Assembly (NCBI GenBank): GCA_944390795.1
Contig: CALXRI010000003.1
Span: forward strand, 7,100 to 71,099
DNA: 64,000 nucleotides
Reading direction: 5' to 3'
Source: an uncultured Victivallales bacterium
GTDB lineage: Bacteria > Verrucomicrobiota > Lentisphaeria > Victivallales > UBA1829
The position numbers and the translations under genes are program-made. Below the pieces are notes generated by a model that did not search any database, had not been told where the DNA came from, and saw only the letters and a program-made list of their open reading frames with translations. Positions within the stretch are counted from its first letter, which is position 1. Each line of letters begins with the position of its first letter. Below are positions 27,288-63,738 of the stretch, piece by piece.

Positions 27288-28016
27288 ATGAAAAAAAGTC
27301 CATGGTCTTCCCGGCGTTTCAGAGGCGCGGAAAGAAAAGCATTTACGTTGATAGAGCTTCTTGTCGTAATTGCAATCATTGCGATTCTGGCCTCGATGCT
27401 TCTGCCCGCCCTGAACAAGGCAAGGGAGACGGTGAGGAGGATCTCCTGCATGTCGAACGAGAGGAGTCTTGTTCTCGCCTCCAATCTTTACGCCGATGAT
27501 TATTCGGACTGTTTTCCGCCTTATCTGCTGGACGGCGCCGGAGCGTCAGGCATTGCAAACGGATGGATGGGTGCGGTGGCTCCTTATCTCCGGATCCGGG
27601 ATCTCTCCCGTCTGGGAAAAACCGCGTTTGAATGCCCGAGTCGGAGCAAGGCTCCGGAGGGATACTGGTTTATGCATTTTGCAATCAATCCGACCGCAGC
27701 CCCGACCAGGGGGGTGGACGGCGGCTCTTCCGCCCCGAACTGGACGAGCGCAAGCACGATGTGCCGGAGAAGAATCCGGAAACCGGCGACGACGTTTCTG
27801 TATACGGAAAACAAGGCGAGTTTCAAGGACACCACTTCCGCCAACCCGTTTGTCGGAGGCTGGCACAACATTGTCTCCGGCGCGGCTGTCGGGCTGATCC
27901 ATCTGAACCGCGCCAACTGGGGAATGGTCGACGGACACGTCGAGGCGATGAATCTTGCGGAGGCGACGATGCGCCTGGCTCGCTTAAGCACGAACTCCCA
28001 GCAGATGTGGGAATGA
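27288..28016 (+). CDS. Prepilin-type N-terminal methylation-domain protein, H-X9-DG (DUF1559-like) pseudopilin
   Basis: ATG 27288. N-terminus [32 protein letters not shown]-terminal [13 protein letters not shown], which reads H-x9-DG. Confidence 0.85.
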
Positions 28017-39690: not shown

Positions 39691-40491
39691 TTACATCCCG
39701 CTTTTCTGCCACCAGAAGGGTTTTGTCCGCGCAGTCGTATCGGCCTCCTGATTCGGAACTTCGCTCATCCGCAGCGAGGCGGCATGGCCGTCGCAGAACA
39801 GGAAGTTCGCCTTGCCGTTATGCCGGAAAACGATGGGATCCGTACTGTGCGTGAACGGCTTGTCGTAGCTCAGAAGTCCGCTTTTCGAATCCCCCATGAG
39901 CATCAGCTGCGAAGGATGCTTATAGCCGGACTGTTTGAACATTTTGTAGTCCTTTACAGTTTCCCAGTAATATCTGGTGAACCATCCGTTGTATCCCATG
40001 GTGTAATATGCCTGCCATGAACCCAGCTGACCGACGTCCGCGCTCGGGCATGCGTAGGGGGATTTGAGGATCTCCGTTCCGATGTTCAGATGTGTGCCGT
40101 AACGTTCATTGGTCGCATTCGATTTTTTGGCGGGCGCCGGCCAGTAGGCGCTCATGATATTGCCTGGCAGATAACCGTAAAACGTGCTGGCGGCACTGTA
40201 ATAGGGGAGGAAATCCTGATAGTCGGATGCATAGAAGATCAGACTCTTCCCCGCCTGGGAAAAATTGTTGAGACAATGGAGCGCATGTCCTTTCTCGCGG
40301 ACTTTGCTGAGCGCGGGCAGAAGCATTCCCGCCAGAATCGCGATGATCGCAATAACGATGAGAAGCTCGATCAATGTAAAATTCTTTCCATTTTTTCCGC
40401 TGTTTCGGCGAAACGAGGTGCCTGCATCTGCCATTTGTTTCTCCATTTCTGTCCGGAATTCCGCCGGGCCGTTTATGTTCTTTGCAATCAT
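39691..40491 (-). CDS. Prepilin-type N-terminal methylation-domain protein, H-X9-DG (DUF1559-like) pseudopilin
   Basis: [32 protein letters not shown]-terminal segment and C-terminal HNGKANFLFCDGH. The start is uncertain (Met candidates at 40491 or further downstream). Lies 156 nt upstream of the giant GH gene on the same strand. Confidence 0.85.
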   Translation of the reverse strand: MIAKNINGPAEFRTEMEKQMADAGTSFRRNSGKNGKNFTLIELLIVIAIIAILAGMLLPALSKVREKGHALHCLNNFSQAGKSLIFYASDYQDFLPYYSAASTFYGYLPGNIMSAYWPAPAKKSNATNERYGTHLNIGTEILKSPYACPSADVGQLGSWQAYYTMGYNGWFTRYYWETVKDYKMFKQSGYKHPSQLMLMGDSKSGLLSYDKPFTHSTDPIVFRHNGKANFLFCDGHAASLRMSEVPNQEADTTARTKPFWWQKSGM

Positions 40492-42950: not shown

Positions 42951-43161
42951 TTGATTTTCTCCGATCGTTTTCCGTTTTTCATGCGGGAGCCATTCTCCCC
43001 GTTCATGCCTGCACACCGCGCGGGGCAGTGGGTGTTCCTGCATCCGGCAGCATGACAGAATTCAGGTTTATCCTTATATATTATATGATGAAACGGAAAA
43101 AACACCAATAGAGATAATGATAAAAACATGAGGATTATAATCATATTGCGGGAAAATACTC

Positions 43162-43467
43162 TTTATTCAAAAAATTTAGGTTAATACCGCGATGCTCTGC
43201 ATCGCCAAAAATTACTTCGTGCAGGACTCTCAGTCCTGCCGCGGTCCAGCTGCGCAAGCTGGTCGCCGGAGGCGAAATCCCTAATACCGCGCCTGCTTGC
43301 ATCGCTGTAATTTATTCAAAAAAATTTAGGTTAATACCGCGATGCTCTGCATCGCCAAAAATTGCTTCGTGCAGGACTCTCAGTCCTGCCGCGGTCCAGC
43401 TGCGCAAGCTGGTCGCCGGAGGCGAAATCCCTAATACCGCGCCTGCTTGCATCGCTGTAATTTATTG
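43162..43467 (+). repeat. Tandem duplication (2 x ~150 nt) of an intergenic repeat unit
   Basis: Copy A is 43162-43310 and copy B is 43311-43460. By eye they are identical except one A/G substitution (43214 vs 43364) and one extra A in the poly-A tract. A third unit starts (tttatt) at 43461. Hairpins in the unit: GCGATGC-tct-GCATCGC, GCAGGACT-ctc-AGTCCTGC and CCAGCT-gcgca-AGCTGG. There is an internal half-repeat TAATACCGCG...GCATCGC. Confidence 0.9.
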
Positions 43468-43741
43468 AATGAACTCTGCATCATGTGTGCTGGATGGCCC
43501 TCATGACATGTTTGGGATGTCCGCGGTTTGCTGTCGGATTTTTTGCATGGAGAGAGATTTCAGGCGAGTTTCCGGAGTGGCCGGAAGGCGGATTCGCCCC
43601 CGCAAGGCGATCCGGAGCGGAAGCCGAGACGGCATCCGACGCGGAACATTTCGATTTTCCGCACTTTGTTCAAAAAATATCCGATCCTCCTGTGCAGTCA
43701 AGCTGCAATCCGGCATAATCGTTCATGAATGCTCCCTTTCC

Positions 43742-43822
43742 ATTCAAACAATATCAGATTAATAGTGCGATGCTCCGTGTTGCAAAAATTGCTTCGCGCT
43801 CTCCTGCCAGTCCAGCTTCAGG
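43742..43822 (+). repeat. Degenerate partial copy of the same repeat unit
   Basis: cattcaaacaatatcagattaatagtgcgatgctccgtgttgcaaaaattgcttcgcgc...tcctgccagtccagcttcaggg aligns by eye to the 5' two-thirds of the unit, with substitutions and a deletion. Confidence 0.6.
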
Positions 43823-44057
43823 GCATCTGAATAAACTTGCCGCCGCAGACTGAAGTCCCGTGCCCAGGGAGTTTTATGCCGGGACGGATCATGCAGAATC
43901 AATGGATTTTACCGCATTCCGGTGATTTTTCAAAGGAGCGATGTCCGTCCTCTGCTTTTTCCGAAAATTTTTCTGTGCAGCCTTCTTTTTATGAGTCTTT
44001 TTCTGAAGCGCGACTCTGTTTTCCCGTTTCCCGCAGATTGGCAGAACTCTTTGCCTT

Positions 44058-45944
44058 TCACGGATTATTCGGATTTTTTTTCTGTTGCCAGACGGCCAGA
44101 ACGTATAACAGCCAGAGGAAATACTGGTTATTCCTGCGTTCCAGCCAATGATCCTCCAGAAGCTTCCGGATGAATTCCGGGTTGAAATTCCATTCCCGGT
44201 GTATGGTTTCCGGGGTGAGCAGCTGTCGGGAGGAATCTTTGAGTGCTGTGCGGAACCAGTCGCCGAGCGGGGTGGAGAAACCCTGTTTTGGGCGATCCCA
44301 CAGCGTTCTCGGGATGTAACGCTCCAGCACCTTTTTCAGAATTCTTTTTCCTCCGTGACGGCGATCATATTGATAGGAGAAGGGCAGGGAAATTGCGAAT
44401 TCCACAATTCTGTGATCCAGCAGGGGCGGACGCACCTCCAGGGAATGCGCCATACTGGCCCGGTCGACCTTGCAGCAGATGTCGTCGGGAAGATAAAGCG
44501 CCATGTCGAGGAATGGCGCCAGGTATCGGGACGGGACCTGTTTTTCAAATTCCTTCAGCGTCCGGCGCAGCACCGAGTGTGCGGAGTCAAACCTGCGGCC
44601 GGTCAGGTGCTCGAAGCGCAACCAGGAGTAAATGCCGGAAATCATGCCGTACATGTCATCAAACCGGTCATAGGAAACCACCGCTCCGCATCTGCCCGGA
44701 AGGCATCCCGTTCCGAACAGTTTTTCCAGGATTTTTCCTCCGCAGCGGCGCAGAAGGCGAGGGACATACTCGTCAATCCATGCAAATTTCCATAAAACGG
44801 AGAGATTATTGTATCCGAAAAACAGTTCATCTCCGCCGTCGCCGGAAAGCGCGGTTGTGACCTGTTTTCTTGCCACGGCGGACAGCAGATAAGTCGGCAT
44901 GGCGGAATCGTCGCCGTACGGTTCGTCATAGATGTCCGGCAGTCTCGGCAGAATGGCGAAGAGGTCCTTTTCCGTCATGATTTCGCAGGTGTGATCCACG
45001 CCCAGATATTCCGCGATTTTTGCCGCATGACGACTTTCGTCTTCCTGTTTTGTCTCAAAGCCGATGGTGAAGGTTTTCAGCTTCCCTGCACTGAGATGAC
45101 GCTGGGCGATTGCGCAGATCAGGCTGGAGTCGATTCCTCCGGAAAGAAAAGCGCCGAGGGGCACGTCGGACATCAGCTCCTCCCGGACCGCCTCGTTCAG
45201 AAGACGGTCCAGTTCGTCGGCGGCATCCTCCGGCGTTCCGGAGAATTTCGTTTCCGGGATCCGGATTTTCCAGTAGGTTTCGGTCCGGCATTTCCCGTTT
45301 TCAAAAACCGCATATTGTCCGGGAGAAACTTTGAAGGTGTTTTTATAGATGGTCAGCGGGGAGGGGATATAGCGCAGCAGCAGATAATGATCCAGAGCGA
45401 CGGGATCCGTCTTTTCCCGGCATTCCGGCAAAGCGGTAATCGCCTTGAGTTCCGAGGCGAAGACAAGCGTTTCGGCGCGGAGGTGGTAGTAAAGGGGTTT
45501 GATTCCCATCCTGTCTCGGAGCAGAAGCAGGCGGGGAGAGCTGTTTCTGCGATCCCATACAGCCGCGGCGTACATCCCGCGCAGCCGGCGGAAGAATGAT
45601 TCCCCGTTGAAACAGAACCCCCAGAGAAGAACTTCGGAATCGGAGTTCGAGCGGAAATGCGCGCCCTGTTTTTCCAGCTCCTCCCGCAGTTCGCGGTAAT
45701 TGTAGATTTCCCCGTTGACGGCGACTGTGACACGGCGGTCCGGTGTGACGAAGGGCTGCCTCCCCGCCTCGGAAAGATCAAGAATGCTCAGGCGGCGGTG
45801 TCCCATCCAGAGTTTCCAGTCCGTTTCCGTGTCGGAAAAGATTCCCTCCTGGTCCGGCCCCCTGTGCCGGAGTGTATCCAGCGCCGTTTTCATTTTGTCT
45901 TCATCGGGGATATTTCGCCCCGCATATCCGAAAATTCCGCACAT
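44058..45944 (-). CDS. asnB: Asparagine synthase (glutamine-hydrolysing), glycan-cluster type
   Basis: 628 aa. MCGIFGY Ntn-amidotransferase start, HRGPD, and the SGGIDSS PP-loop motif. Confidence 0.9.
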   Translation of the reverse strand: MCGIFGYAGRNIPDEDKMKTALDTLRHRGPDQEGIFSDTETDWKLWMGHRRLSILDLSEAGRQPFVTPDRRVTVAVNGEIYNYRELREELEKQGAHFRSNSDSEVLLWGFCFNGESFFRRLRGMYAAAVWDRRNSSPRLLLLRDRMGIKPLYYHLRAETLVFASELKAITALPECREKTDPVALDHYLLLRYIPSPLTIYKNTFKVSPGQYAVFENGKCRTETYWKIRIPETKFSGTPEDAADELDRLLNEAVREELMSDVPLGAFLSGGIDSSLICAIAQRHLSAGKLKTFTIGFETKQEDESRHAAKIAEYLGVDHTCEIMTEKDLFAILPRLPDIYDEPYGDDSAMPTYLLSAVARKQVTTALSGDGGDELFFGYNNLSVLWKFAWIDEYVPRLLRRCGGKILEKLFGTGCLPGRCGAVVSYDRFDDMYGMISGIYSWLRFEHLTGRRFDSAHSVLRRTLKEFEKQVPSRYLAPFLDMALYLPDDICCKVDRASMAHSLEVRPPLLDHRIVEFAISLPFSYQYDRRHGGKRILKKVLERYIPRTLWDRPKQGFSTPLGDWFRTALKDSSRQLLTPETIHREWNFNPEFIRKLLEDHWLERRNNQYFLWLLYVLAVWQQKKNPNNP

Positions 45945-58166: not shown

Positions 58167-58337
58167 TATGCTCCTTTCCGGATTTTTTCCCCCGCTGCTG
58201 CTACGCAACAGCTTCTCTTGTTTCATTATAATCACATTTCGGGAAAAAAGCAATAGGTCCGGCAGGAAAAAATGATTTTTTCAGATATGGCGGAGCGGAA
58301 AAGGCTTCCGGAAAAGGGCAGGGGAGTTCTTTCCGGA

Positions 58338-58487
58338 AAATGAATCGCCGCGACGCAGGCATGCGCGGTATCGGGGATTTCGCCTGCGGCGACCAGCTTG
58401 CGCAGCTGGACCGCGGCAGGACTGAGAGGAAGGCACGAAATATTTTTGCGATGCAGTGCATCGCGGGACGAGCTGATTTTTTTAATC
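58338..58487 (-). repeat. Inverted-orientation copy of the ~150-nt repeat unit
   Basis: The reverse complement aligns along the whole unit. A 42-nt core (58387-58428; ctctcagtcctgccgcggtccagctgcgcaagctggtcgccg) is identical to both tandem copies, while the flanks carry many substitutions. The copy abuts the IclR stop codon (palindrome CTGATTaaaaaAATCAG). Confidence 0.85.
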
Positions 58488-59262
58488 AGAAGCCATTTCC
58501 CGCGCATCTCAAATGACGCATGACGGAGGCCGCCGCCCGCTTCAGGTGCGCGAGGATGATGCGGTCGCGTGATTCTCCCGCATGTTCGGGAAGTGTATAG
58601 ACTCCCAGTGCGCCGGCAATCTCTCCCCCCGGGGCGAACACCGGCACGGCATAACTGTAAGTCCGGTAACGCTTGCGGAGCGTGATGCAGTATCCCCGCG
58701 TGCGGATCCGTTTCACTTCATCCTCGTAATCGGGCCAGTAAAATTCGGGCATGCCGTTTTCCTCCATGAGAAGCTGCCGGCGTTCCGGTGATGAAAAGGC
58801 GAAGATGACCTTCCCCGTTGCGGTCTCATAGAGATAAAACCGGCGGACGGTTTCCACATCCGGGCGTTGGAGATCGCCGCGCGGGCCGACGTTCACGAAT
58901 GTGGTCCAGACATTGTTTTCCAGAAGGATGTAAGTCATTCCCTCTCCGATTTCTTTTACGTGGCGCAGGAGAGTGTCTGTCACGCGCGACTGGAAACGGC
59001 AGGTCGCGGTCTGATTGCGGTAGGCGATTTTCCTGCACTGGCATCCCGTCGTGTAATTGCCGAATCCGTCTTTTTCGATGTAGCCGCAGGCTGCCATTGT
59101 CTTCAGCAGATTGTGAGCTGTCTTGACGGAAATGCCCTGTTTCTGGGCGAGTGTTTTCAGACGCATGGAATTTCCGCGCGGATTGTCAAACAGCAGAATG
59201 GACAGCATGTCCAGCGCCTTTTTCACCGATTTGACGGGCACTTCATCCTTTTTTCCCCTCAT
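58486..59262 (-). CDS. IclR family transcriptional regulator
   Basis: ATG 59262 (MRGKKDEVPVKSVKKALDMLSILL...). wHTH plus an IclR effector-domain layout, 258 aa. It is the only protein-like part of the 1246-aa track ORF 58486..62226. Confidence 0.85.
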   Translation of the reverse strand: MRGKKDEVPVKSVKKALDMLSILLFDNPRGNSMRLKTLAQKQGISVKTAHNLLKTMAACGYIEKDGFGNYTTGCQCRKIAYRNQTATCRFQSRVTDTLLRHVKEIGEGMTYILLENNVWTTFVNVGPRGDLQRPDVETVRRFYLYETATGKVIFAFSSPERRQLLMEENGMPEFYWPDYEDEVKRIRTRGYCITLRKRYRTYSYAVPVFAPGGEIAGALGVYTLPEHAGESRDRIILAHLKRAAASVMRHLRCAGNGF

Positions 59263-59325
59263 GGAGCATCTCCCCTTTGTTTTCCGGAAACAATAGCCGG
59301 CCGTGGCGGGATTTGCAACTTCATA

Positions 59326-59357
59326 TTTCCCGTAATATGGGAAAATATCGTTTTCCC
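59326..59357. promoter_or_regulatory. Candidate IclR operator in the divergent IclR / GH89 intergenic region
   Basis: TTTCCC (59326-31), N7, GGGAAAA (59339-45), N5, TTTTCCC (59351-57). These form two overlapping inverted repeats that share the central half-site. Confidence 0.4.
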
Positions 59358-59478
59358 GTTGCTTTTCCGTCCCGCCGGACGGATAGTAAAAAGAGAAATC
59401 CCGGACAGGCGCGTTTCCTGCCCCAGTGCGTCTTTTCCGGGGAGAAAGACAATCAGTTATCTGAAAGGAGAGTCTGCC

Positions 59479-61812
59479 ATGTTTAGAATTCTGATTCCGG
59501 AAGAGAGTGCGGGAATTCACCGGATCGCAGCGGATGTCCTTGCCGCCTGCACGCGGGAGATCACCGGACGGACGCCGGAGACCGTTGTGCGCGACGATGC
59601 GGAAAGCGATCTTGTCGTGCTGGGTTCCGATGCGGAAAATCCCTTTGCGCTCGACCTGCTGCTGGCGGGGAAGCTTGACCAGCCCCGTATCCGCTGCGGC
59701 AGCGACGACTATTCCCTGACGAGTCTGCGCGACGGCGGGCGGAAACTGCTTCTGATTGCGGGCGGCCGGGGGAGGGCTCTCCTTTACGGCGTCTATGATT
59801 ATCTGGAACGCTGCGGCTGTTCCTGGTTCTGGGATGCGGATCTTTTTCCGAAACTGGACGAACTGCCCCTGGAAAACTTCCATGTCTGCGGGAGACCCCG
59901 TTTCGAATACCGCGGACTGCGTTATTTCGCGCACCGCAGTCTGCACCGCTTTCAGGCGGAGCACTGGAATCTGGAAGACTGGAAGCGGGAGATCGACTGG
60001 ATTCTGAAAAAACGCCTGAACTTCTTCATGCTCCGCATCGGTCTGGACGATCTCTTCCAGAAGGCCTTCCCGGAGATTGTCCCCTATCCCGCTCCGGAAG
60101 GGAGCTCCGCGACGGACATTCCGCGCTCGTTCAACGACCGCACGCAGTTCTGGAGTCTTGCGGAACGGGGGAGACTGCGGGAGGCTCTTCTCCGGTACGC
60201 GCGGGAACGGGATCTCATGCATCCCGAGGACACCGGGACGATGACGCACTGGTACAGCCGGACCCCGCAGGAGTTCCTGGACGCCGTGAAACCGGAGTTC
60301 ATGCCCCAGGCGAACGAAAAGCAGTACGGCGAACCTTCCGGACTCGTCTGGGATATCCGGAAGGACAGGAATCTGGACAACTATTTCCGGCTTACGGAGG
60401 CGCACATCGCACTCGGCGGTCCTCCGGAACTGTTTCATACCATCGGCCTTGCCGAACGTCTCTGTTTTCACGATCATGCCCGGAATCATGCACTGAAACT
60501 CTACACCTACCGCAGGATCATCGGAAAACTGCGTTCGCGCCATCCCCTCCCGCCGCTGCTGATCGCCTCCTGGGATTTTCTCTGTTCCTGGACGCCGGAG
60601 GAGGTCCGCGGCCTGCTTGCCGAACTGGACGCCGGGAACACTCTGATTCTCGATTACACCTCCGACAGCTGCGATGAACGCAACAACTTCCTGAACTGGA
60701 ATCTGCCCGGAAAGTTCCCTTGGATCTTCGGCATCTTCCACGCGTTTGAATCCAATACGGAGATGCGCGGCAATTACGATGTGATTGAACGCCGCCTGCC
60801 CGTCGCCGCGGAGGATCCCATGTGCAGGGGAATGATCTTCTGGCCGGAGAGTTCCCATACGGACACCCTCATGCTGGAGTACTTTGCCGCCAACGCCTGG
60901 AATCCCGCACATGTCCGGATTGTGGAGTATCTGGAACTTTTCTGCGCCCGGCGTTACCGCGGCGCGGAAGCCGGACAAATGACTCCAGTCTGGCGTGTCA
61001 TGCTGCCCCTGATCCGGAGCAACTACTGGCGTCAGAACCGGCAGATGCCCATACGCGGAGCCCTCTATCAGGATTATGTCTTTCACATTCTTGGGTATGC
61101 CATGACGGATCTTTATCCCGTCTGGCTGGAAAATCATGAAGCAATCACGAGGGAGCTTGGAAGGGCGATTCATGCCGCGCCCGTCTGTTGGCGCATGCTT
61201 GGAAAGACGGACTATTGCTCGTTGAGCGCCCATGCAAAACGGGACTGGATCGATCTGGCGCGCTGCGCCGCTTCGCGTCTCTCCAATTTCGCATGCGGCG
61301 TTCTTGCCCTGCATATGGAGGCGTGGAGGAACGGAGAGACAAATTCCGAATCCGTTCTGGGGTATGCGGAAGCCATCGGCGAACTCCTCCGGATGGAAAA
61401 GATGCTGCTCGGAGCCCATGAGGATTATTCGCTTTATGCCTCTCTTCTCCGGATGCGGGAGAGCGCACCGGTCAATCCCGCTTTCGAGTCTGCCCTGAAA
61501 GGCAATGCGGAAAATGAATACTGCCGCAGTTTTGCAAGCGAACTCTTTGACGCCTGCTATCTGCCGGAATTCGAGTGTTACCGGAAATGGCTGGAGCGGA
61601 AAATCTCTTCCGGGGACCGTTCCCCCTGGCGTTATCCGGAAGCGTTGTTCACCCGGGAGAAGAAACGGATCGAGGACCGTTTTTATGAGACGGCTCTGGC
61701 GGCTTTCGCCCCGGATCGGGAGGACTGCATTGCGGCGCTTCCAGCGACCTTGTCGAATCTGGAAGGGATCGCGGCGAAGCTGCTCTCCGGCATTGGCGCG
61801 ATTTACGTCTGA
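59479..61812 (+). CDS. GH89-like alpha-N-acetylglucosaminidase (divergent)
   Basis: ATG 59479 with AAGGAG at 59465-70, inside ORF 58867..61812. Blocks align by eye to NAGLU-family landmarks: LLYGVYDYLERCGCSWFW; WNLEDWKREIDWILKKRLNFF; LILDYTSDS...FPWIFGIFHAFESN; YLELFCARRYRG. No signal peptide. Confidence 0.7.
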   Translation: MFRILIPEESAGIHRIAADVLAACTREITGRTPETVVRDDAESDLVVLGSDAENPFALDLLLAGKLDQPRIRCGSDDYSLTSLRDGGRKLLLIAGGRGRALLYGVYDYLERCGCSWFWDADLFPKLDELPLENFHVCGRPRFEYRGLRYFAHRSLHRFQAEHWNLEDWKREIDWILKKRLNFFMLRIGLDDLFQKAFPEIVPYPAPEGSSATDIPRSFNDRTQFWSLAERGRLREALLRYARERDLMHPEDTGTMTHWYSRTPQEFLDAVKPEFMPQANEKQYGEPSGLVWDIRKDRNLDNYFRLTEAHIALGGPPELFHTIGLAERLCFHDHARNHALKLYTYRRIIGKLRSRHPLPPLLIASWDFLCSWTPEEVRGLLAELDAGNTLILDYTSDSCDERNNFLNWNLPGKFPWIFGIFHAFESNTEMRGNYDVIERRLPVAAEDPMCRGMIFWPESSHTDTLMLEYFAANAWNPAHVRIVEYLELFCARRYRGAEAGQMTPVWRVMLPLIRSNYWRQNRQMPIRGALYQDYVFHILGYAMTDLYPVWLENHEAITRELGRAIHAAPVCWRMLGKTDYCSLSAHAKRDWIDLARCAASRLSNFACGVLALHMEAWRNGETNSESVLGYAEAIGELLRMEKMLLGAHEDYSLYASLLRMRESAPVNPAFESALKGNAENEYCRSFASELFDACYLPEFECYRKWLERKISSGDRSPWRYPEALFTREKKRIEDRFYETALAAFAPDREDCIAALPATLSNLEGIAAKLLSGIGAIYV

Positions 61813-62774
61813 CTCCCGGCTGTCCGCTGTTTTTCCTTCCCGCAAGGAAACCGTCCTGCATCCGGGAGCTCTTCCTCTTCCGGATCGGGTGCGGCGACGG
61901 GAAATTCCGGAACTGTTCCGTTTCGCGCGGCGGATGGAGAACACCGGAGGTGTTTCCGGAAGACTTTCCACATATGGCTGTAGTTGTAGAACCCGCACTG
62001 GAACGCGATGGAATCGTTTGTCAGAGAGGTTTCGCGCAGAAGCGAGATCGCGCGGTTGACGCGCAGTCTCTGCAGATATTCCGAAGGACGCATGCCCAGG
62101 ATCTGCTTGAATTTCCGCTGCAGTGCGCTCATGCTCATGCCGGAGTGCTTTGCGAGGCTTTCGATGCGGAACGCGCTGTCGCCGAGATGGTCGTTCATCA
62201 TCCGGATCACCGTGTTCAGCGTCCATTTCTGCGACGGGGAATTCTGCGCCCTGCAGTAGTAGGCAAGCAGAATGACCGCGGCGGTGAACAGGGAGATGAT
62301 GATGGTCTGATAACCGGGACGCCGGGTTTTCAGTTCGGAACGGATCGTCCGGAGGAAGAAGGTGATTTTATCCAGGTCGCGTTTCCGGATGTTTCCCAGA
62401 ACTCCTGCAAACGCCCCTCCTTTGCCGCCGCCCGGATAGAGCAGATGCAGGAACGGGGATTTTGTCAGCAGAATCATCGGGATCGGGACACTGGAATTGT
62501 AGAGAATGTTGTAGATGAGCGTTCCCTCCTGCATCTGCGAGTAGGCGTGCTTCATCCCGGGATGGATCAGGAGAAAATCCCCTTTTTTCAGAGAATGGAT
62601 CTCGTTTCCGCAATGATGAGTGATGCCTCCTTCGGCGATCAGGATGATTTCCGAGAAATCGTGGGAGTGAAGCAGAATCTGGGAACAGTTCAGATTGTTC
62701 TCCAGTGTCATTGTCGTGACGGAAATCGGGAAATAGGAATCCTCGATGTAGTTTTTCAGGCTTAGATTCAGCAT
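61803..62774 (-). CDS. AraC family regulator (cupin sensor + HTH)
   Basis: Likely start is ATG 62774 (MLNLSLKNY). HSHDFSEIILIAEG cupin. C-terminal SLAKHSGMSMSALQRKFKQILGMRPSEYLQRLRVNRAISLL...IAFQCGFYNYSHMWKVFRKH. The tail overlaps the GH89 stop by 10 nt. Confidence 0.85.
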   Translation of the reverse strand: MLNLSLKNYIEDSYFPISVTTMTLENNLNCSQILLHSHDFSEIILIAEGGITHHCGNEIHSLKKGDFLLIHPGMKHAYSQMQEGTLIYNILYNSSVPIPMILLTKSPFLHLLYPGGGKGGAFAGVLGNIRKRDLDKITFFLRTIRSELKTRRPGYQTIIISLFTAAVILLAYYCRAQNSPSQKWTLNTVIRMMNDHLGDSAFRIESLAKHSGMSMSALQRKFKQILGMRPSEYLQRLRVNRAISLLRETSLTNDSIAFQCGFYNYSHMWKVFRKHLRCSPSAARNGTVPEFPVAAPDPEEEELPDAGRFPCGKEKQRTAGSQT

Positions 62775-62964: not shown

Positions 62965-63738
62965 ATGAAAATGAAGAGTCCGTCGTCACTGCAGATCAGA
63001 CATTGTTTCACCTTGATCGAGCTCCTGGTCGTGATTGCGATCATCGCGATTCTGGCCTCCATGCTTCTGCCTGCGCTGAACAAGGCAAAGCAGACGGCGC
63101 AGAACATTTACTGCACAAACAATTCCAAAACCATCATGCAGGGAATGCTTCTCTATGCGGATACTTACCAGTATTTCCCATACCGGGACATCGAAGTCGG
63201 GAATCCGGAAGGAAGATTCTGGTATCAGATGATTTACGGAATGCTGACCGGAGACAAGGGGAATAATCTGAAATTCTATCAGCGGTCCGCTTTTTACAAA
63301 TGTCCCGCCTATCGCTACACGGGCGATATCGGCTATCAAACCATCGCCTATGGGAAAAACGACTGGCTGGGAACAGCCATTTCTGCCTCTACCAATTCTC
63401 CGGTGAGACCGGAACAGGTGAAACGGTCTTCCCGCGTCATTGCCGTAGGAGACAGTGACGATGACGCCTATTTCGGGATGATTATTGCCGACAGCACTTA
63501 TCCGCTGGGCAACCGTCACGGCGGCAAGGCGACGGCGGCGTTTGCGGACGGACATGCGGAAATCGTTCTTTCCCGGGATTGGCTTGCTCCCGGAGTGACA
63601 TATGGCGCCATGGACTATGCGACGGGGACAAGTCTTGTCCATTCCAGCTCTTCCCCCGTCGCCACTACGCTCAGGGCCCCGGAACACCTTTGTAAATGGG
63701 GCGCCCGCGGAGCGGGATACGATTATCTGACAAAATAA
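62965..63738 (+). CDS. Prepilin-type N-terminal methylation-domain protein, H-X9-DG (DUF1559-like) pseudopilin
   Basis: 257 aa. [32 protein letters not shown]-terminal segment and C-terminal HGGKATAAFADGH. Confidence 0.85.
   Translation: MKMKSPSSLQIRHCFTLIELLVVIAIIAILASMLLPALNKAKQTAQNIYCTNNSKTIMQGMLLYADTYQYFPYRDIEVGNPEGRFWYQMIYGMLTGDKGNNLKFYQRSAFYKCPAYRYTGDIGYQTIAYGKNDWLGTAISASTNSPVRPEQVKRSSRVIAVGDSDDDAYFGMIIADSTYPLGNRHGGKATAAFADGHAEIVLSRDWLAPGVTYGAMDYATGTSLVHSSSSPVATTLRAPEHLCKWGARGAGYDYLTK

Follow-up and report, generated by a model that had tools for sequence, protein, structure and literature searches.

A probable REP/BIME/BOX-like family of repeats built from hairpin modules in intergenic DNA of Victivallales

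Families of small palindromic repeats have been well studied in Proteobacteria and in a few Firmicutes. BOX of Streptococcus pneumoniae (boxA-boxB(n)-boxC), ERIC/IRU, RUP and Correia/NEMIS are modular, non-coding intergenic repeats of 100–300 nt; repeats of the BOX type have a variable number of internal modules, a strong predicted structure, no ORF and a mobilising enzyme that is unknown. MITEs are multi-copy elements shorter than 600 bp and free of ORFs, and are marked by terminal inverted repeats, a target-site duplication and an autonomous parent insertion sequence. The ends of IS200/IS605 elements and of PATEs carry subterminal hairpins in the same orientation and at asymmetric spacing, with neither terminal inverted repeats nor target-site duplications; insertion takes place 3' of a fixed tetra- or pentanucleotide, and the elements have a cognate TnpA. 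BIMEs (bacterial interspersed mosaic elements) are clusters of REP units in alternating orientation with linker motifs, and RAYTs are Y1 transposases of the IS200/IS605 kind whose genes have inverted REPs on either side. The REP and BIME repeats of Proteobacteria have been linked to RAYT transposases (PMC2817692; PMC3733652), and next to their palindrome, at one end, REPs carry a tetranucleotide tag, GTAG or CGTC, that is unpaired (PMC3733652).

The window analysed here, a stretch of 64,000 nt from an uncultured Victivallales bacterium (G+C content 54.5%), contained repeat units A, B, C and D, which are listed with their parts in Table 1. The tandem pair A/B was recovered by repeat search as 150 nt at 99% identity, and B was 98.7% identical to A by blastn. 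The two units differ by a single A/G substitution (ATTACTTCG versus ATTGCTTCG) and by the length of an A-run (A6 versus A7), and the closing TTATT of A, from 43312 onward, is common to B. The near-identity of these copies, described in an earlier note on this DNA, was thus found again by repeat search, blastn and alignment.

The same note had reported a full copy in the opposite orientation 15 kb away, and unit C was indeed retrieved there. When unit A was searched against the window by blastn, C matched on the minus strand at 87% over 119 nt, and in the repeat search each of the tandem copies gave an inverted match of 109 nt at 84–85% to 58339-58447. Unit D, which had been taken for a degenerate partial copy, proved to be degenerate (70% identity to A over 43742-43859 by blastn) but not partial, as it runs over the full length to about 43870. 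Its left end, Ha, TTCGCGCTCTCC, GTCCAGCT and a remnant resembling H3/GAAAT were recognisable in the alignment.

The 42-nt core, stated earlier to be identical in A, B and C, had exactly three exact matches in the window. It was absent from 100 dinucleotide-preserving shuffles even when three mismatches were allowed, so that 0 matches are expected by chance. The 3' arm of H3 and the GAAA(T) tail lie immediately beyond this core.

Table 1. Repeat units, core copies, hairpins and neighbouring genes in the window. R1 denotes the covariance model of H2+H3.
Feature	Position	Strand	Description
Unit A (type-1)	43163..43316	+	Order: TTATT + A-run, Ha, H1, H2, H3, GAAAT, Hb, TTATT; R1 match 43239-43278
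Unit B	43312..43466	+	Head-to-tail tandem copy of A; 98.7–99% identity; R1 match 43389-43428
Unit D	43742..43870	+	Decayed full-length copy, oriented like A and B; blastn 70%; four-way alignment
Unit C (type-1)	58339..58488	-	H1 5' arm replaced; R1 match 58377-58416; present in all same-species contigs spanning the site
42-nt identical core in A	43227..43268	+	H1 loop and 3' arm, H2, 5' half of H3
42-nt core in B	43377-43418	+	Exact match
42-nt core in C	58387-58428	-	Exact match
Ha in A	43189..43205	+	GCGATGC-TCT-GCATCGC; aligned copies GCGATGC-N3-GCATCGC
H1 in A	43221..43239	+	GCAGGACT-CTC-AGTCCTGC; aligned copies GCAGGACT-N3-AGTCCTGC
H2 in A	43246..43262	+	Family signature; CCAGCT-GCGCA-AGCTGG; aligned copies CCAGCT-GCGYA-AGCTGG
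H3 in A	43264..43278	+	CGCC-GGA-GGCG, then GAAAT; aligned copies e.g. CGCC-GNA-GGCG
Hb in A	43286..43308	+	ACCGCG.cTGC-TT-GCAT.CGCtGT
Asparagine-synthase-like gene	44058-45944	-	
Gfo/Idh/MocA oxidoreductase gene	likely start 42950	-	GGAG precedes the start

The type-1 unit, about 150 nt long, strings together five hairpins (Ha, H1, H2, H3 and Hb) and has a T[G/T/C]ATT pentamer at either end. Across the aligned copies the order was T[G/T/C]ATT with an A-run, Ha, TTCGTGC, H1, CGCGGT, H2, TCG, H3, GAAAT, Hb and TT[C/T]ATT. The two hairpins singled out earlier, GCGATGC-N3-GCATCGC and CCAGCT-GCGCA-AGCTGG, are both present in the unit and correspond to Ha and H2. In tandem arrays, observed in the window and in the related loci L011 and L017, neighbouring units have one terminal pentamer in common.

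Hairpin Hb carries two disrupting substitutions in A and B and is intact in C and in most relatives, its forms among the aligned copies being ACCGCG.ATGC-TT-GCAT.CGCGGT or, alternatively, CCCCG...GTGC-TCT-GCAC-CGGGG. It repeats the palindrome of Ha in direct orientation, and both are preceded by TAATACC in unit A and by RATAC(C) across the aligned copies. The 'half-repeat' noticed earlier and the apparent terminal inverted repeat of the unit follow from the occurrence of a single palindrome twice in the same orientation, as Ha and as Hb.

At the H1 position, relatives had other stems (CAAGGGyC/GrCCCTTG, GAGCTGG/CCAGCTC) or had lost the 5' arm. In C, the 5' arm of the GCAGGACT/AGTCCTGC hairpin is not conserved, as had been pointed out, and reads CCTTCCT; this is a family variant (CTCTCCT and similar) found in more than 12 copies elsewhere.

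Units D, B and A are placed in a 1.1-kb spacer between the asparagine-synthase-like gene and the Gfo/Idh/MocA oxidoreductase gene, and C lies between IclR-like and LacI-like genes, both on the minus strand. All copies were intergenic, in keeping with the earlier note, with one exception: C opens with TGATT..., and its initial TGA doubles as the stop codon of the IclR-like gene upstream (58486-58488). Between the end of C and the start codon of the LacI-like gene downstream there are about 170 nt. The genes on either side run in the same direction at both sites; C is sense to them and A, B and D are antisense, so the units have no fixed orientation relative to their neighbours, which is also what the note had described. 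No sigma-70-type promoter or intrinsic terminator was predicted inside the units, and no tRNA or tmRNA gene was found in a scan of the window. A coding reading was worked out by hand and rejected, as the 30-aa ORF of A and B is frame-shifted in C.

The exact H2 22-mer (GGTCCAGCTGCGCAAGCTGGTC, a piece of the core) was scanned over one genome per GTDB species, yielding 54 loci in four assemblies: the Lentisphaeria MAG CASEFP01, the Victivallales MAG CALXSJ01, the Ruminococcus-labelled MAG JAFURN01 and an Erysipelotrichaceae isolate with one site. Core copies counted by regular expression in the fetched 8-kb loci numbered 66, 31 and 9 for CASEFP, CALXSJ and JAFURN, respectively, with 3 in the window. 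Model R1 gave about 127 significant copies in 393 kb of fetched loci; within the window it recognised A, B and C only and missed D. Core copies in the fetched loci lay almost entirely outside ORFs, and many copies were situated at contig ends. None of the 54 loci was syntenic with the window; the repeat alone matched, and the window therefore belongs to yet another genome.

A simpler explanation would be a local duplication combined with a match due to chance or gene conversion, with no family behind it. Only three intact copies within the window would be in line with this, whereas the zero matches expected by chance and the more than 100 copies in other genomes refute it.

The copies in the Ruminococcus MAG showed the same hairpin order and an identical H2, combined with different H0, H1 and H3 stems, and formed an element of about 630 nt with 169-nt inverted arms. 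The contig is genuinely of Firmicute origin, the best homologues of its Lgt being from Ruminococcus and Porcipelethomonas. In a metagenome scan with a 21-mer, 33 loci were obtained, of which about 10 were family members from a few gut-type assemblies. The remaining two thirds of the matches were coding sequence (...QLRKLV...) of high-GC soil bacteria and do not belong to the family; a short core alone is therefore not diagnostic. A viral contig collection contained no copy, and no similarity was found in plasmid and phage collections.

At gathering thresholds, Rfam gave 0 matches for the whole window and 18 related loci, and in E-value mode (window, local region and related loci) matches were at chance level only. 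The candidates Cyano-2, Rubella_3, the c-di-AMP riboswitch, mir-186 and SNORD38 scored far short of their thresholds and were rejected, and the earlier failure to assign the unit to an Rfam family was thereby upheld. A hammerhead-like reading of a hairpin followed by GAAA was also dismissed, since there is no CUGAUGA box and Rfam ribozymes gave no match. No paper was found in a full-text search of a literature library for the core sequence, and no description of such a family was found for Lentisphaerota. The family appears to be undescribed and confined to a narrow lineage of the gut/rumen, apart from a related form carried by a Firmicute.

In related MAGs, the H2-H3-GAAA module was common to several unit types, and its neighbours differed between units. 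One of these types has an AATTTGC-N4-GCAAATT hairpin upstream, and in another there are GGAAnAATGC-N3-GCATTnTTCC, CGGGG and a different H1 (TCAAGGGyC...GrCCCTTG). In both types the next element was frequently a three-way-junction module (CCGGCGGC / GGTTCCACC / GACGAG-hairpin-CGAGA / GCCGCCGG), which also occurred in a second, covarying version with the junction bases conserved.

The modules were strung together in arrays of 150–800 nt, often as two convergent arms folding as a long rod, and a composite of about 400 nt recurred in a dozen loci at 72–96% identity. At the end of one array there was a clear intrinsic terminator, located on the strand of the core. Clusters of alternating orientation were observed in related loci (L016, L020, L006 and L028), and the cluster in the window is direct (D...B-A).

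Differences in copy number were found between closely related sequences. The same-species contigs L055 and L056, 99.9% identical to the window over 8–10 kb, contained a single unit where the window has A and B, a difference of exactly 150 nt, due either to true variation in copy number or to the collapse of nearly identical tandem units during assembly. Other same-species contigs ended inside units, L057 in unit B and four Logan contigs in the core of C.

Orthologous proteins of CASEFP and CALXSJ were 91–94% identical for most pairs and 65% for one. In the orthologous spacer of L010 and L052, one versus two core units were present, together with one versus three copies of the terminator-bearing module. 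In L018 and L043, the downstream modules were entirely different after the first unit.

Upstream of oxidoreductase orthologues at 93%, 83% and 61% identity, no core copy was found; the orthologue at 93% shared the proximal ~125 nt of the leader and had a different neighbouring gene. The element was likewise absent from the relatives of the Ruminococcus locus. Since the neighbours differ, no clean filled/empty pair was recovered via the oxidoreductase or Ruminococcus Lgt orthologues. These comparisons show that the presence of copies is lineage-specific.

No target-site duplication was observed, the flanks of about 20 single copies being without matching direct repeats, and the T[N]ATT pentamers at the two ends differed within copies. 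The left pentamer tracked the subfamily, with TGATT accompanying ...ATCAGTTYCATACA and TTATT accompanying ...TTTAGGTTAATACC, and it therefore belongs to the element; its interpretation as a target site was rejected on account of this co-variation.

No recurrent neighbouring gene was identified, as the ORF clusters in the loci were either spurious ORFs across arrays or common paralogue families. The clusters of N-methyl/DUF1559-like, Gfo/Idh/MocA, AraC and LacI genes were set aside as such families and not as associated genes. The genes flanked by copies were ordinary, e.g., those for an EpmA-like protein and EF-P. Neither a transposase nor a recombinase was detected in the vicinity of copies in the fetched loci, and phmmer gave no match to RayT or IS200 TnpA in the six-frame ORFs of the window and the 54 loci, a weak test because the query sequences were approximate.

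Genomic context was counted with an amino-acid-composition gene caller, a crude method that replaced a codon-usage caller found to be too weak. By these crude gene calls, type-1 units were evenly spread: 4 were in co-directional spacers running with the core and 4 in co-directional spacers running against it, and convergent and divergent spacers had 4 and 5, respectively. For core copies, the same crude calls gave 23 in convergent versus 5 in divergent spacers, and 52 after a co-oriented versus 26 after an opposed gene, which is the pattern reported for REPs (PMC3733652).

Conservation of structure was evaluated by pair counts in the model-fitted alignment of 135 matches (93 distinct). Stem cells were paired in 98.4% of cases, compared to 16–41% with the partners slid. 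Among the H3 pairs, one was CG in 54 and UA in 25 copies and another GC in 40, AU in 7 and UA in 2, and an H2 pair was AU in 74 and GC in 7. The H3 stem varied with compensation in the family (CGCGC/GCGCG, CGTGC/GCACG, CGCAC/GTGCG and longer forms), and 19 copies in the loci, with H2' (CCAGCG-GCGAAA-CGCTGG) or CCGGCG...CGCCGG, were compensated at two stem positions.

Almost no covariation was observed when type-1 units were taken alone, because these copies are too similar, and the 'invariance' of H2 is partly an effect of ascertainment, since the search used the exact H2 22-mer. As a model-fitted alignment leans to the structure of its model, the support for the hairpins is clear, not quantitative; with this qualification, the aligned sequences indicate that compensatory changes have preserved H2 and H3 as hairpins in the wider family. 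The earlier view of the core as conserved at the level of sequence and not purely of structure needs to be corrected accordingly, and the perfect identity over 42 nt in the window is attributed mainly to common descent of the family copies.

The unpaired motifs TTCGTGC and GAAAT were also conserved. Together with the compensatory changes, they are also compatible with a functional RNA or a protein-binding site.

It is conceivable that the units are genes or cis-elements of a structured RNA (an sRNA, mRNA-stabilising 3' structures or riboregulators), with H2-H3-GAAA as a protein-bound RNA motif. The predicted folding of the unit was strong on either strand (z about -4.1), and a Firmicute has the same hairpin order. 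One array in the relatives ends in the intrinsic terminator mentioned above. This explanation keeps some weight in view of the compensated stems of H2 and H3, the conserved unpaired GAAA(T) after H3 and the junction module of relatives, with its covarying stems and conserved junction bases.

Several observations argued against such an RNA and, in particular, against the sRNA under selection that the earlier note had considered. The units of the window are oppositely oriented relative to co-directional flanking genes, type-1 units showed no orientation bias, and no promoter or terminator consensus was found in or beside the units. A strand-specific RNA is expected to tolerate G·U and to avoid A·C. 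Single-step stem departures on the core strand comprised 7 G·U and 11 A·C (the latter being G·U on the other strand), i.e., they were equally frequent, as expected for a DNA palindrome. Rfam gave no match even at permissive thresholds, and the arrays were grossly different at orthologous sites of close relatives. A structured RNA as the function of the units is therefore considered unlikely.

Another possibility is that the core is bound as DNA by a host protein (a nucleoid protein, gyrase, an IHF-like protein or a regulator) or serves as a site of site-specific or homologous recombination, in which case A/B and C could invert the 15 kb between them. H2 consists of inverted arms of 6–9 bp around an asymmetric 5-nt spacer, the units adjoin promoter-like ATTATAAT boxes upstream of two genes, and the 42 identical bases in inverted A/B and C are enough for RecA-dependent inversion. 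However, no inverted junction was seen, since the same-species contigs spanning C (L098, L099 and L105) and A/B (L055 and L056) were all collinear with the window. Moreover, about 100 copies in varying module context are unlike a regulon, and H3 varies in sequence with its structure kept, which a double-stranded DNA site would not require. A protein-binding or recombination site was accordingly judged very unlikely.

The units are thus best read, with a probability somewhat above even, as a REP/BIME/BOX-like family of non-autonomous repeats that consist of hairpin modules and act at the DNA level. They would behave as selfish or neutral palindromic DNA elements, like REP/BIME or BOX, multiplying through local tandem duplication via the shared terminal pentamers and through recombination between modules. 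Mobilisation might be performed in trans by an enzyme recognising H2/H3 as hairpins of single-stranded DNA, an enzyme that is only inferred here. Effects on neighbouring genes, such as hairpins at mRNA 3' ends or insulation, would be secondary.

A more far-reaching interpretation is that H2-H3-GAAA, preserved with compensation and found in an unchanged hairpin order in Victivallales and a Ruminococcus, is the recognition element of a new hairpin-specific enzyme or RNA-binding machinery, the repeats being a new class of non-autonomous mobile element or structured RNA that moves between gut phyla, with the ~400-nt palindromic composites carrying the three-way junction as its full-length form. 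This class would be distinct from REP/RAYT, MITEs and the PATEs of IS200/IS605; at present it is regarded as quite improbable.

For the annotation of the window, the units should be recorded as repeats and not as sRNA genes or riboswitches linked to the adjacent regulator and sugar-metabolism genes. The family explains many contig breaks in Victivallales MAGs, and it offers a lineage marker as well as a modular system for asking how such repeats spread. The same hairpin order in a Firmicute of the same habitat, the ruminant gut, is a hint that a non-coding element has moved horizontally. Should an enzyme recognising H2/H3 exist, it would constitute a new partnership of the REP/RAYT kind.

When compared with MITEs, the repeats are similarly small, non-coding, multi-copy and located in AT-rich intergenic DNA. 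Complementary sequences lie near the two ends (TACCGCGATGC / GCATCGCGGTA), and the Ruminococcus form has its 169-nt inverted arms. However, the complementarity between the 5' arm of Ha and the 3' arm of Hb, 11–14 nt long, is subterminal and results from the presence of the same palindrome twice in direct orientation. As there is no target-site duplication, the repeats are not MITEs in the strict sense; a parent insertion sequence is not known for them, and plasmid and phage collections gave no match.

The layout of the type-1 unit recalls the ends of IS200/IS605 elements and PATEs, as a resemblance and not as membership. The sequence RATAC(C)GCG(C)ATGC-loop-GCATCGC is present in Ha and again, in the same orientation, in Hb, at unequal distances of about 21–24 nt from the left end and 8 nt from the right end. 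Classical terminal inverted repeats and target-site duplications are lacking in the type-1 unit as in those elements, and head-to-tail copies share a terminal pentamer. In contrast to PATEs, no TnpA/TnpB was associated in the fetched DNA, the left pentamer is part of the element, and the central H1-H2-H3 block is not known to have a counterpart.

With BOX, the Victivallales units have in common that they are modular, intergenic, non-coding, in the size range of 100–300 nt, variable in the number of internal modules, strongly folded by prediction and without an ORF. There is no sequence relationship, and the Victivallales modules, each of them a hairpin, are shuffled far more freely, in arrays that reach 800 nt and are often palindromic overall.

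From REP/BIME the repeat of the window differs in being a 150-nt composite of five different hairpins, whereas a REP is a palindrome of 20–40 nt. No GTAG or CGTC was found beside Ha, H1, H2, H3 or Hb in A, B, C and the aligned relatives, the motifs flanking the hairpins being TTCGTGC, CGCGGT, TCG and GAAAT, and without this tag the units are not REPs in the strict sense. The host also differs, being a member of Lentisphaerota with a related form in a Firmicute, and no RAYT gene was found in the search of the fetched DNA.

There are also likenesses to REP/BIME. REPs are small palindromes (20–40 bp), and the modules Ha, H1, H2, H3 and Hb are likewise small palindromes, hairpins of 11–23 nt; in both cases the modules are GC-rich, extragenic and present in many copies. 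Both are arranged in mosaic arrays with alternating orientation that fold into larger structures, are enriched between convergent or co-directional genes, and are lineage-specific and fast-changing. The REP/MITE-like element proposed in the earlier note therefore does not stand in the strict sense, which would include a tag, a target-site duplication and a transposase, and it does stand in the broad sense of a dispersed, intergenic, hairpin-built repeat with 66, 31 and 9 core copies in the loci fetched from three MAGs.

A box reading ATTATAATCAyATTkCGGGAAAA was found at both repeat loci of the window, in plus orientation in each case. Read on the minus strand, it corresponds to TTTTCCCG.AAT.TGATTATAAT. 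The box was located approximately 185–210 nt upstream of the start of the oxidoreductase gene and approximately 60–85 nt upstream of that of the LacI-like gene. It adjoins unit A and lies about 85 nt from unit C, yet these two repeat units are oppositely oriented. The shared box is a possible promoter, in which TATAAT would be the −10 element.

Unit C also overlaps the end of the IclR-like gene, the TGA stop codon of which forms the first three bases of the unit (TGATT...); the same TGATT start was observed in several other type-1 copies. An ORF of 1246 aa, antisense to a plus-strand NAGLU-family glycosidase gene, is mostly spurious, the real IclR-like gene comprising only its last 258 codons.

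Two further kinds of match were noted in the window. Between units B and D, the c-di-AMP riboswitch model gave a weak match (13.6 bits, E = 3.2; gathering score, 38), which is most likely due to chance. Three shorter repeats represent coding-sequence paralogy and are unrelated to the ~150-nt family; two paralogous genes encoding a prepilin-type N-terminal methylation motif are each overlapped at the 5′ end by one of these repeats.

Coordinates of features in the window and in the fetched loci (L-numbers)
Feature	Location	Remarks
Shared box	window 43134-43160; 58225-58252	plus orientation
c-di-AMP riboswitch match	window 43503-43673 (-)	
IclR-like stop codon	window 58486-58488	
1246-aa ORF	window 58486-62226 (-)	
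80-109-nt repeats	window 27342-27450; 40293-40381; 63006-63115	78-83% identity
Paralogous genes	window 39691-40491 (-); 62965-63738 (+)	
~400-700-nt composite	L016 3436-4126; L020 4450-5092; L007 467-866; L013 3883-4681	two tandem copies in L013
~100-nt module	L052 7000-7330; L010 3880-3990	ends in canonical intrinsic terminator (GGCAGGCAAGCCTGCC + T-run)
~630-nt Ruminococcus MAG element	L028 3289-3918; L002 727-1407; L021, both contig ends	
Exact H2 hairpin, Erysipelotrichaceae RD49	L039 3100-3300	near contig end

Outside Victivallales, the identical H2 hairpin is contained in the 169-nt inverted arms (89% complementary) of the Ruminococcus element. Its outer ends carry AAATTGTAGTTTA, which includes GTAG, and inverted copies of the element bound one 6-kb contig. 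In Erysipelotrichaceae RD49, the exact hairpin was present at a single non-coding site, preceded by other hairpins and followed by a TGCC-GAAG-GCA hairpin; this site may be a family member or a chance resemblance. Pattern hits alone over-count the family, because the 21-mer TCCAGCTGCGCAAGCTGGTCG is also part of protein-coding genes in high-GC soil bacteria, specifying ...QLRKLV... there (L058, L060, L062–L065 and other metagenome loci).

The terminator-bearing module follows immediately after the core array, with a single copy in one MAG and three tandem copies in the second MAG at the orthologous position.

The ~400-700-nt composite recurs at no fewer than 12 loci. It is built of two convergent arms with a central hairpin where they meet; in each arm the core module precedes a three-way-junction module (GACGAG...CGAGA), the stems of which covary. 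The predicted fold is a rod (z = −13). When compared with Rfam, the composite gave no match; it may represent the repeat family in full length or a separate structured RNA.
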